Source: Blastocystis sp. Blastoise (taxonomy: Eukaryota; Protista; Bigyra: Opalinata). Taken from it: a stretch of DNA of 64,000 nt. The stretch covers positions 1,240,001 through 1,304,000 of the forward strand of contig JBBPEB010000034.1 in the NCBI GenBank assembly GCA_039096225.1. Direction: 5' to 3'. Position 1 is the stretch's first letter; every line of letters begins with the position of its first letter. The translations under genes and the position numbers were made by a program. The notes beneath the pieces were generated by a model. That model made no database searches and was not told the DNA's origin. It was given only the letters and a program-made list of their open reading frames with translations. Shown here in pieces: positions 22,943-24,288 of this stretch.

Positions 22943-24288
22943 ATATAGATATCTACATACTAGAGCTTCATGAATGGTTATTAGGTTACCATCAATATCT
23001 CTTTCTGGGACAAAATAATTCATTTCTTTAGCGAATTGTTTATCCAGGACATAATCAATGAATACTTTTATACCAAGCTCAGAAGTACATAAATCATTTA
23101 ATTTAAAATCATTATTATTATATATAGTTTTATATTTTATATTTAGATTATAGTATTTGTCATGAACATCATTTGTATGATGGCAACTTCTGATGAAACT
23201 TTGGCAATAAAGAGGATTAACACAATTTGTTCTTCCAAACCAAGTGGCAAAACAATGTCTATAGGAATAACCTGAGTGATCTTTAGGTATGTTACTAAAT
23301 AATTTTTTTAATTGATGTTTACAACTATATAGGTATATAAGTTAATATATATATATATATATATATATAGATTTAGATAAATATATATATATAGGTATAC
23401 ATAGTGGGATAGGTACTATATGTGAATTGGGATGCTACATAATTACTATTAGTATTTGGTTTTCGTATATATAGGAATAAATTTGTTGTATATTCAATAT
23501 CATTATCTTTTAAATATTCACATATTTGATTTCTTATAATTATATATTTATCATATATCTTTTGAAATTTTTCGCATAAAATATATATATCAGGAAATTT
23601 CTTGCCGTCAGAATAAGGAATATTTCCATTCTTAGATCCTGTATGTATTATATATATATATTCTTTTTTAGTATTTTCATTTCTATATTTCTTTAGGTTT
23701 TCAAATAATTTCAAATTATATATATCATTATTTCTAAGTGGACAGCCTGTGCAAGTCTGAAGGAGATACATCATAAGAATCGTAATAGTATGAAATTTTT
23801 TTATATATATATCATTAATATTTTTCTTATTATTAATTTCTTCTATATATATATTAATTTTTTCAAATAATGTTCTAATTATATTGTAGTAATCTTGTAA
23901 AGAGATAAGAGCTTCCATTTTCTTTTTCTTATTCAAATCCTCAAAAGCTTTACTATCATTTTTACTAATGAAATTGTTATCTGTAATCATAACTGAAGAC
24001 TTGTGAGTAATATATGTTAGTGTTTCTTTTATTATATCTTTCATTTTATTATCTATATATACATTTTTTCTTTCTATATAGGTAATTATAGATCTTATCT
24101 CTTGTATTCTATTATGAAGGGTTTTTGGACAATTTGATCTGGGCAGAATATTTAGAGTAACGTATTTATATATAAAATCAGGAAATAGTAAAATATTCAA
24201 ACCATAATGATCAAGTTCTTCCTGATATAATACAAAAGCAAAATTGATTATATCACAAATACTAAGCATAATTTCATAACTATATATA

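Follow-up and report, generated by a model that had tools for sequence, protein, structure and literature searches.

A probable tyrosine-recombinase gene, split by introns, in tandem 20-kb units next to telomere repeats of Blastocystis sp. Blastoise

Every telomere-inserting nimavirus described, from shrimps and isopods, has a tyrosine recombinase, and these viruses exist as concatemers, joined via a short telomere tract, or as episomes (PMC10871703). Cryptons, among them the CryptonS of stramenopiles, are eukaryotic elements whose only mobility gene is a recombinase, with no RT, LTR or TIR; those of oomycetes bear C48 peptidases (PMC3212892), and CryptonV is microsatellite-targeting according to a work cited in PMC8869645. 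The OLV11-like recombinases of virophages, Polinton-like viruses and giant viruses are proteins of ~320 aa encoded in capsid-coding genomes (PMC4642659). Yeast Y' elements are tandem, near-identical units of 5-7 kb, present at many chromosome ends with short telomere tracts between them and moved by host recombination (PMC4222662). Terminons, as described in PMC5537684, always carry RT.

We analyzed a window of 64 kb (the whole stretch of Blastocystis sp. Blastoise DNA considered here), with ~19% GC. Tortoise Blastocystis isolates have 21-23% GC and were annotated with Braker3 and RNA-seq (PMC10690189). The window contains tandem units of 20-24 kb, in which the sole recognisable intact gene encodes a probable tyrosine recombinase. 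Judged by analogy, the element would work most like the telomere-inserting nimaviruses (PMC10871703) and the target-specific Cryptons (PMC3212892, PMC8869645) and appears to be built like Y', and its enzyme seems closest in sequence to the OLV11-like viral recombinases (PMC4642659). None of these four families can accommodate it. Nimaviruses reach 278-579 kb and have core viral genes, whereas the unit has one recognisable gene; this likeness is drawn from published descriptions. With Cryptons, compared by description, the unit shares a recombinase as its only mobility gene and the lack of RT, TIR and LTR. It differs from them by its much greater length, its tandem arrays at chromosome ends, the lack of a DUF3504 or GCR1_C match, and its junctions, which are telomere tracts with variable right ends and in which no terminal direct repeat of 4-6 bp was identified. 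The OLV11-like proteins share only ~16% identity with the domain, have S, T or N rather than Y three residues before the Arg, and belong to capsid-coding genomes, whereas neither a capsid gene nor a terminal inverted repeat was found here. The tandem near-identical units with short telomere tracts between them reproduce the architecture of Y' elements, whose units are shorter (5-7 kb). Y' elements encode a helicase, not a recombinase. Coordinates of the features are collected in Table 1.

Table 1. Main features of the 64-kb window (strand +, - or. where none applies)
Feature	Position	Strand	Remarks
Unit 1	19650..30682	.	92-100% identity per 500-bp bin to unit 2 (full bins)
Large gene of probable recombinase, copy 1	20020..26977	-	NCBI WA158_006854 = P0003, 1715 aa
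Exon with catalytic box II	22961..23324	-	Y948 (23269-23267), R951 (23260-23258), H952, H978 (23179-23177), Y987 (23152-23150)
Antisense intron 1	23287..23394	+	108 nt, GTATGT...TATAG; overlaps the sense intron; inferred from piece coordinates of the X1 contig
Intron splitting the catalytic domain	23325..23400	-	76-nt GT-AG, annotated in 13/13 copies, without read support here
Exon with catalytic box I	23401..24279	-	R818 (codon 23735-23733, GCPLRNND), candidate K852 (23633-23631, TGSKNG)
Antisense intron 2	23465..23593	+	129 nt, GTATAT...ATCAG; inside the box I exon; from the loose end of the X1 contig
Short-module region	33412..35097	+	three TTAGGG or G-run tracts, two short noisy copies between
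Unit 2, complete 20.2-kb repeat unit	35098..55257	.	palindrome cluster, decayed host-gene-like segment 41045-44030, gene copy 2
Palindrome cluster, unit 2	35207..35702	.	four palindromes, core GTAGA(G/C)TCTAC, one inverted
Gene of probable recombinase, copy 2	44395..51527	-	annotated P0004 (WA158_006855)
Unit 3 start	55258..64000	.	(TTAGGG)2 junction, 99% identity to unit 2, continues beyond the window

The repeats are arranged head to tail: positions ~19650-30682 match ~44030-55257, and 35095-43791 match 55264-64000 at 99%. The left end of the unit, an A-run followed by GAGAGTATGTTATAAAATG (in unit 2 an A-run, TATATAC and TGAGAGTATG), occurs four times and each time directly follows a TTAGGG or G-run tract. 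The telomeric setting assumed by the first-pass annotation is borne out. The DNA before this tract varies: it is unique at 33411, consists of two short noisy modules, or is cut at 55257, where unit 1 continues. Right ends of units vary as well. The two short modules correspond to the first ~950 bp of the unit at 61-73% identity, and together with the G-runs they may be long-read consensus error. These modules (33505-34246 and 34423-35068) end at nearly the same unit position (36030-36042), beside the telomere-like GGTTTAAGGTAAG; the shared stop is either a preferred telomere-healing site or the product of repeated noisy reads.

Unit 1 begins otherwise. Its identity to unit 2 switches from ~80% to ~99% within a flanking gene-like region and not at a telomere junction; this jump at 19650 suggests homologous recombination within a captured host-gene-like segment as the event that added unit 1. 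The decayed segment of unit 2 is ~80% identical to an intron-rich, plus-strand gene-like region at 16378-19650, which flanks unit 1. One short exon of this region has a by-eye likeness to a glycerophosphodiesterase C-terminus, for which no Pfam match was found. A host ORF at 12997-14091 (+; 364 aa, ending in EKKWKLLFR), also without Pfam match, resembles by eye the beginning of a TLDc-type protein.

Outside the recombinase gene, unit 2 contains ten stop-free frames of at least 70 aa, nine of them of low complexity; the unit 1 copy of the tenth has no Pfam match, and neither a [YF]xDD RT motif nor a long frame is present among the ten. No capsid or packaging ATPase was seen in this part of the unit, where intron-split genes could be missed. 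The 64-kb window has no pair of inverted repeats of at least 150 nt and the units are direct tandem copies, hence terminal inverted repeats are absent at this length. Neither a target-site duplication nor an empty site nor a circle was observed. A Rfam scan of 26900-44500 returned no hammerhead and nothing above threshold, the matches on palindromes being sub-threshold miRNA look-alikes. The window has one canonical three-unit heat-shock element (at 7774) and the unit none. Concerning the chromosomal position of the copies, four of the 13 annotated ones (8 contigs) are separated from a contig boundary by 2 locus numbers at most. The locus tags 003002/003003 and 006557/006559 straddle such boundaries: as the members of each pair are on different contigs, sequential numbering would place these copies at or next to contig ends.

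The region 22961-24279, in which the first-pass annotation had noticed a recombinase active site, is the middle of the 1,715-aa protein P0003. Its map on the locus is exact and comprises 19 exons between 26977 and 20020; this number is a lower bound, the first 4 residues being located further upstream, outside the exon map. P0003 is composed of S/N/P-rich repeats, a helical region with the recombinase domain (approximately aa 531-1050), N-rich repeats and a C-terminal globular region. The minus-strand frame 24290-23373 bears GCPLRNND and TGSKNG, and the frame 23341-22910 bears HSGYSYRHCFAT and SCHHTNDVHDKYY. Excision of the intron 23400-23325 (GTATAC...ATATAG) joins them in frame as YPT-I-CKHQL, as had been proposed from the letters. 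This intron shares its GTAT.../(TA)n/...ATAG build with most other introns of the gene. Among 15 GT/AG pairs tried around the splice site, 4 keep YSYRH and HHTNDVHDKYY both in frame; the 76-nt intron is the shortest of them and also the choice of the annotators. The public annotation of Blastocystis sp. Blastoise has the same join and all five motifs in 13/13 copies on 8 contigs, with 0-3 substitutions over 520 aa. All 13 are annotated "hypothetical protein", and so are the five 100% matches obtained by a search with the first exon, which come from the same organism and whose clusters make up these 13 proteins on 8 contigs. Copy 2 in the window differs from copy 1 by one residue in the catalytic exons. 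It has no AG acceptor at ~49170, and the annotated P0004 begins at an internal Met downstream.

Several repeats accompany the gene. A long (AATATG)n satellite occupies 22482-22815, within the intron 22819-22475. Coding repeats of 63-72 bp in the flanking S/N/P-rich exons are not equally numerous in all gene copies, whereas the recombinase exons are near-identical throughout. An 11-bp repeat array (AACTGTATATT), located at 27136-27255 and 51605-51870 with a different copy number in the two units, lies ~150 bp upstream of the mapped gene start and is a possible promoter element. The C-terminal region of P0003 (aa 1511-1715; 20960-20020, -) bears a by-eye likeness to a degenerate Ulp1/C48 peptidase without catalytic residues, which found no support in Pfam or PDB.

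The residues R818, K852 (tentative), Y948, R951, H978 and Y987 follow the order and spacing of tyrosine recombinases, the R-H spacing of 27 and the H-Y spacing of 9 being inside the family ranges. The predicted nucleophile is Y987, with Y986 as alternative. In the 101-row alignment A5, which includes both comparison families described below, R818, R951, H952, H978 and Y987 do not vary; the family Lys is displaced by one column from K852, which lies in a low-confidence loop of the model. Of the R-K-Y-R-H-Y pattern first read in this DNA, R, Y, R, H and Y are in place and the catalytic Lys is uncertain. In alignment A1 box II was out of register, and this alignment was not used for folding. The combined pattern of boxes I and II, defined post hoc, arose in 1/100,000 shuffles of the domain, and box II alone in 151/100,000.

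Alignment-free comparison with the ESM Atlas gave the joined domain a score of 0.97 (176-182 of 256 features) with unnamed viral clusters, the two top ones being Preplasmiviricota, and 0.96 with a Phage_integrase cluster; among the best 10 named matches, 10/10 share the family or clan. Exon A alone, on the box I side of the splice, scores 0.94-0.95 and its list includes Phage_integrase, DUF3504, ResT-TelK and NDC10_II clusters, DUF3504 and NDC10_II at only 0.88.

Two families of relatives were assembled for profile comparison. A motif of the OLV11-like type led to 94 loci, in frame in 94/94 cases, and to 66 distinct full-length IMG/VR proteins, which on the strength of that motif we take to be the OLV11-like family. 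For box I and the helices preceding it, this family, the lead named by the first-pass annotation, gave the best sequence match: exon A matches its profile with 24 bits, a value reached by 0/1000 shuffles and 0/500 local shuffles without composition correction. With the composition correction of HMMER the match is not significant, 163/1000 shuffles scoring as high. An hhalign comparison with 20 OLV11-like recombinases gave 162 colinear columns across the splice and through the RH pair, with both arginines in register (E 0.0012). The second family, phage and cyanobacterial-type integrases (n=50 distinct, from IMG/VR and metagenomes), was fished with the box II motif of the domain itself (17 loci tested, 8 recombinase-like, among the steps). 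The profile of this family matches exon B with 11-13 bits, a score reached by 0/1000 shuffles and obtained partly by construction. These integrases share box II (YxxRH...GHxxxVHxxY, including YxxR) and a Lys in an S/T-K-T/N-G turn; they differ by a median Arg-to-Arg distance of 81 versus 133 here, by the lack of an exon A match and by being prokaryotic. One relative, on a Microcystis plasmid, is annotated as tyrosine-type recombinase/integrase. The group with YxxRH and GHxxxVHxxY is widespread and barely seen by Pfam (1/4 tested, below threshold).

The domain has no match in Pfam, PHROG, NCBIfam or PDB sequences, nor in a phage tblastn. In particular PF00589 gives no match at E<=10; PF00589 also misses 14/20 OLV11-like recombinases at E<=0.1 (6/20 match). 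No relative was found at E<=0.001 among 1.84 billion representatives, and homolog searches returned Blastocystis copies only. Searches for long OLV11-like fusion proteins found none, which is weak evidence. One match of a motif search was due to chance, with no recombinase frame listed, and two further motif searches were empty. Identities of ~16% or less would not place the domain reliably in a tree. As regards structure, AlphaFold failed to fold the single sequence (pLDDT 36), and in the alignment-guided model pLDDT reaches 70-85 in most of the catalytic core (mean 63). Tyrosine recombinases, type IB topoisomerases and structural relatives make up the whole of the first 27 rows of a VIA search with the guided model, a comparison that is partly circular as the guiding alignment was made of recombinases. 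The best matches are XerH (Z 12.3, rmsd 7.0, 241 aligned), XerA (Z 10.5, rmsd 3.6, 173 aligned), the Tn1549 integrase, Cre and type IB topoisomerases; Foldseek agrees, with weak E-values. From sequence and model together, we consider that the domain is very probably that of a tyrosine recombinase, whose active site is split by an intron as first supposed. It is likely to be intact and active, and is predicted to cleave DNA via a 3'-phosphotyrosine.

The hypothesis of an AT-rich orphan protein without recombinase fold, in which the motifs arose by chance or persist as relics, would account for the silence of the curated profiles, for the weakness of each sequence statistic and for a structure that hinged on the supplied alignment. 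It is very improbable, because the alignment-free Atlas gives recombinase families for exon A alone and a higher score for the joined domain, and each of the two exons is matched, in the correct order, by a recombinase family of its own.

RNA was examined on 23160-23600. Run X1, which holds a third of the sampled words and is one of three runs presumed, though not recorded, to be RNA, gave a single 617-nt contig there (depth 201), spliced on the plus strand and covering ~22993-23850; runs X2 and X3 gave no contig over 23160-23600. The X1 contig maps in two pieces, 23160-23290 and 23406-23465, with 7 letters between them in the record; the loose end continues from ~23595. One joint row was discarded by the mapping program as sitting at a repeat. 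These offsets misfit the sense intron and fit exactly two plus-strand GT-AG introns, therefore the contig is a spliced antisense RNA. It contains no plus-strand frame of more than 59 aa, and one base agrees with copy 2. As it stems from the opposite strand, the sense splice 23400-23325 is neither shown nor refuted by the reads. Such a spliced antisense RNA would likely damp expression of the recombinase.

Our preferred reading, to which we assign a probability of roughly 0.5, is that of a Y'-like element of chromosome ends which, with the help of host recombination, likely inserts at telomere repeats by means of its own recombinase. The recombinase would cut and rejoin DNA at the fixed end of the unit, which would thereby insert in TTAGGG tracts at chromosome ends. 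Y987 is predicted to attack a phosphate activated by R818, K852, R951 and H978, Y948 taking the position of the first His. If junctions of adjacent units recombine, a circle with a short telomere tract may be released, and this circle could re-integrate at another telomere tract; a route of this kind has been proposed for Cryptons and telomere-inserting nimaviruses. Host homologous recombination would add copies of the unit and keep them alike, as the homology-type left edge of unit 1 suggests. The 13 intact, near-identical copies on 8 contigs count in favour of this reading, as do the left end that abuts a telomere or G tract in 4/4 cases, the locus tags at contig boundaries and the precedent of the telomere-inserting nimaviruses. 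Against it count the left edge of unit 1, which is not at the fixed end, the variable right ends, the antisense orientation of the sole RNA contig, and part of the junction region, which may be assembly noise.

The palindromes allow other roles for the enzyme. All nine GTAGA(G/C)TCTAC cores of the window lie within ~600 bp of a left end, one core is inverted per complete unit, and all nine have a single central G or C. The best palindrome, 35660-35702, already singled out in the first-pass annotation, is real, its two 21-nt arms being perfect and separated by a single base (21-1-21). Arms are made of 8-bp repeats, and the palindromes are candidate sites for binding of the recombinase or a host factor. 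A resolvase for this cluster might recombine direct sites into circles or flip the inverted site to amplify the unit. Flp acts in this manner for the yeast 2-micron plasmid. The position of the cores and the one inverted copy agree with this role, as do the inverted arms with a 7-bp centre, an arrangement in keeping with the arm-spacer-arm layout of sites used by tyrosine recombinases (PMC3212892). We hold it to be improbable nevertheless, for no unit boundary falls at any palindrome and the repeated 8-bp arms look like an array of protein-binding sites. Still less probable is a protelomerase-like enzyme that would resolve 35660-35702 into hairpin ends, which the first-pass annotation had put forward as an unproven idea. 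TelA has R255, K286, Y363, R366, H394 and Y405, and ResT likewise has Tyr in place of the first His (PMC3558466), in agreement with the first-pass annotation. The R-K-Y-R-H-Y order and the R-to-K (34 versus 31) and R-to-H (27 versus 28) spacings resemble TelA, a ResT/TelK cluster appears in the Atlas search of the joined domain (0.94, rank 29 of 30, 135 features), and TelA and TelK, which have a related fold, are present in the fold search (Z 6.6 and 6.3, ranks 24-27), below Xer, Cre and integrases. However, YxxR is ordinary among integrases: the Tyr is found in 48/50 phage and cyanobacterial integrases (from a search partly biased to Tyr), S, T or N in 66/66 OLV11-like proteins, and Lys in 54/56 TelN-type protelomerases. 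The position is variable and not diagnostic, and gives no support to a resolvase reading. Neither PF16684 nor the 56-member TelN profile, in which ResT and TelA are not included, matches the domain (155/1000 shuffles as high for the latter), and TelN-type A2 gives E 0.28. The TelA substrate is an even palindrome that yields a self-complementary 6-base overhang and then hairpin ends (PMC3558466), whereas 35660-35702 is odd-symmetric, with a single central base that could not give such an overhang. True ends of the DNA lie outside the window, which shows TTAGGG tracts and 0 inverted pairs of at least 150 nt, of the kind left by hairpin ends in assemblies.

The main competitor of a recombinase-driven insertion, at well below even odds, holds that the recombinase domain is real and is a passenger or part of a domesticated DNA-binding protein, the unit spreading like yeast Y' elements. 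An eroded, telomerase-healed end would invade an internal TTAGGG tract and copy the unit by host break-induced replication. The geometry seen here, a tract-proximal end that is fixed and distal ends that vary and are capped by tracts, is the one described for Y' acquisition in PMC4222662, and it is explained as well by this route as by our preferred reading; the same model accounts, by host break-induced replication alone, for the variable right ends and for the homology switch at which unit 1 begins. The near-identity of the copies requires no selection if homogenisation is recent, and domesticated Crypton recombinases are known (PMC3212892). But the domesticated DUF3504 genes described there have lost the catalytic Tyr and the second Arg, whereas here all six residues are present in 13/13 copies. 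Retention of the active site despite extreme divergence from any relative is explained less well by the host-driven route, and so is the fact that the recombinase gene is the sole intact gene kept while the host-gene-like segment decayed.

We found no description of the element in the literature searched, from which most subscription papers and Repbase were excluded, and the main text of PMC10690189 contains neither "recombinase" nor "telomer". Tentatively, and with more doubt than confidence, it may represent a new class of eukaryotic telomere-resident element: capsid-free and RT-free, ~20 kb long, with an intron-laden recombinase of probable viral origin, circle excision, TTAGGG-specific integration, Y'-like arrays at most chromosome ends and antisense control. 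Nuclear genomes of eukaryotes rarely contain catalytically complete tyrosine recombinases, and the present domain is invisible to every curated profile tried, which means that standard repeat and protein annotation misses it. If insertion by its own recombinase is true, the element would encode an enzyme for the amplification of subtelomeres, so far credited to host recombination, and would provide a test of whether subtelomeric arrays arise passively through host repair or are selfish elements equipped with an enzyme of their own. If TTAGGG is its target, it would be a site-specific recombinase for the telomere repeat of vertebrates themselves. Together with the nimaviruses, it would point to a repeated and independent use of tyrosine recombinases in colonising chromosome ends.
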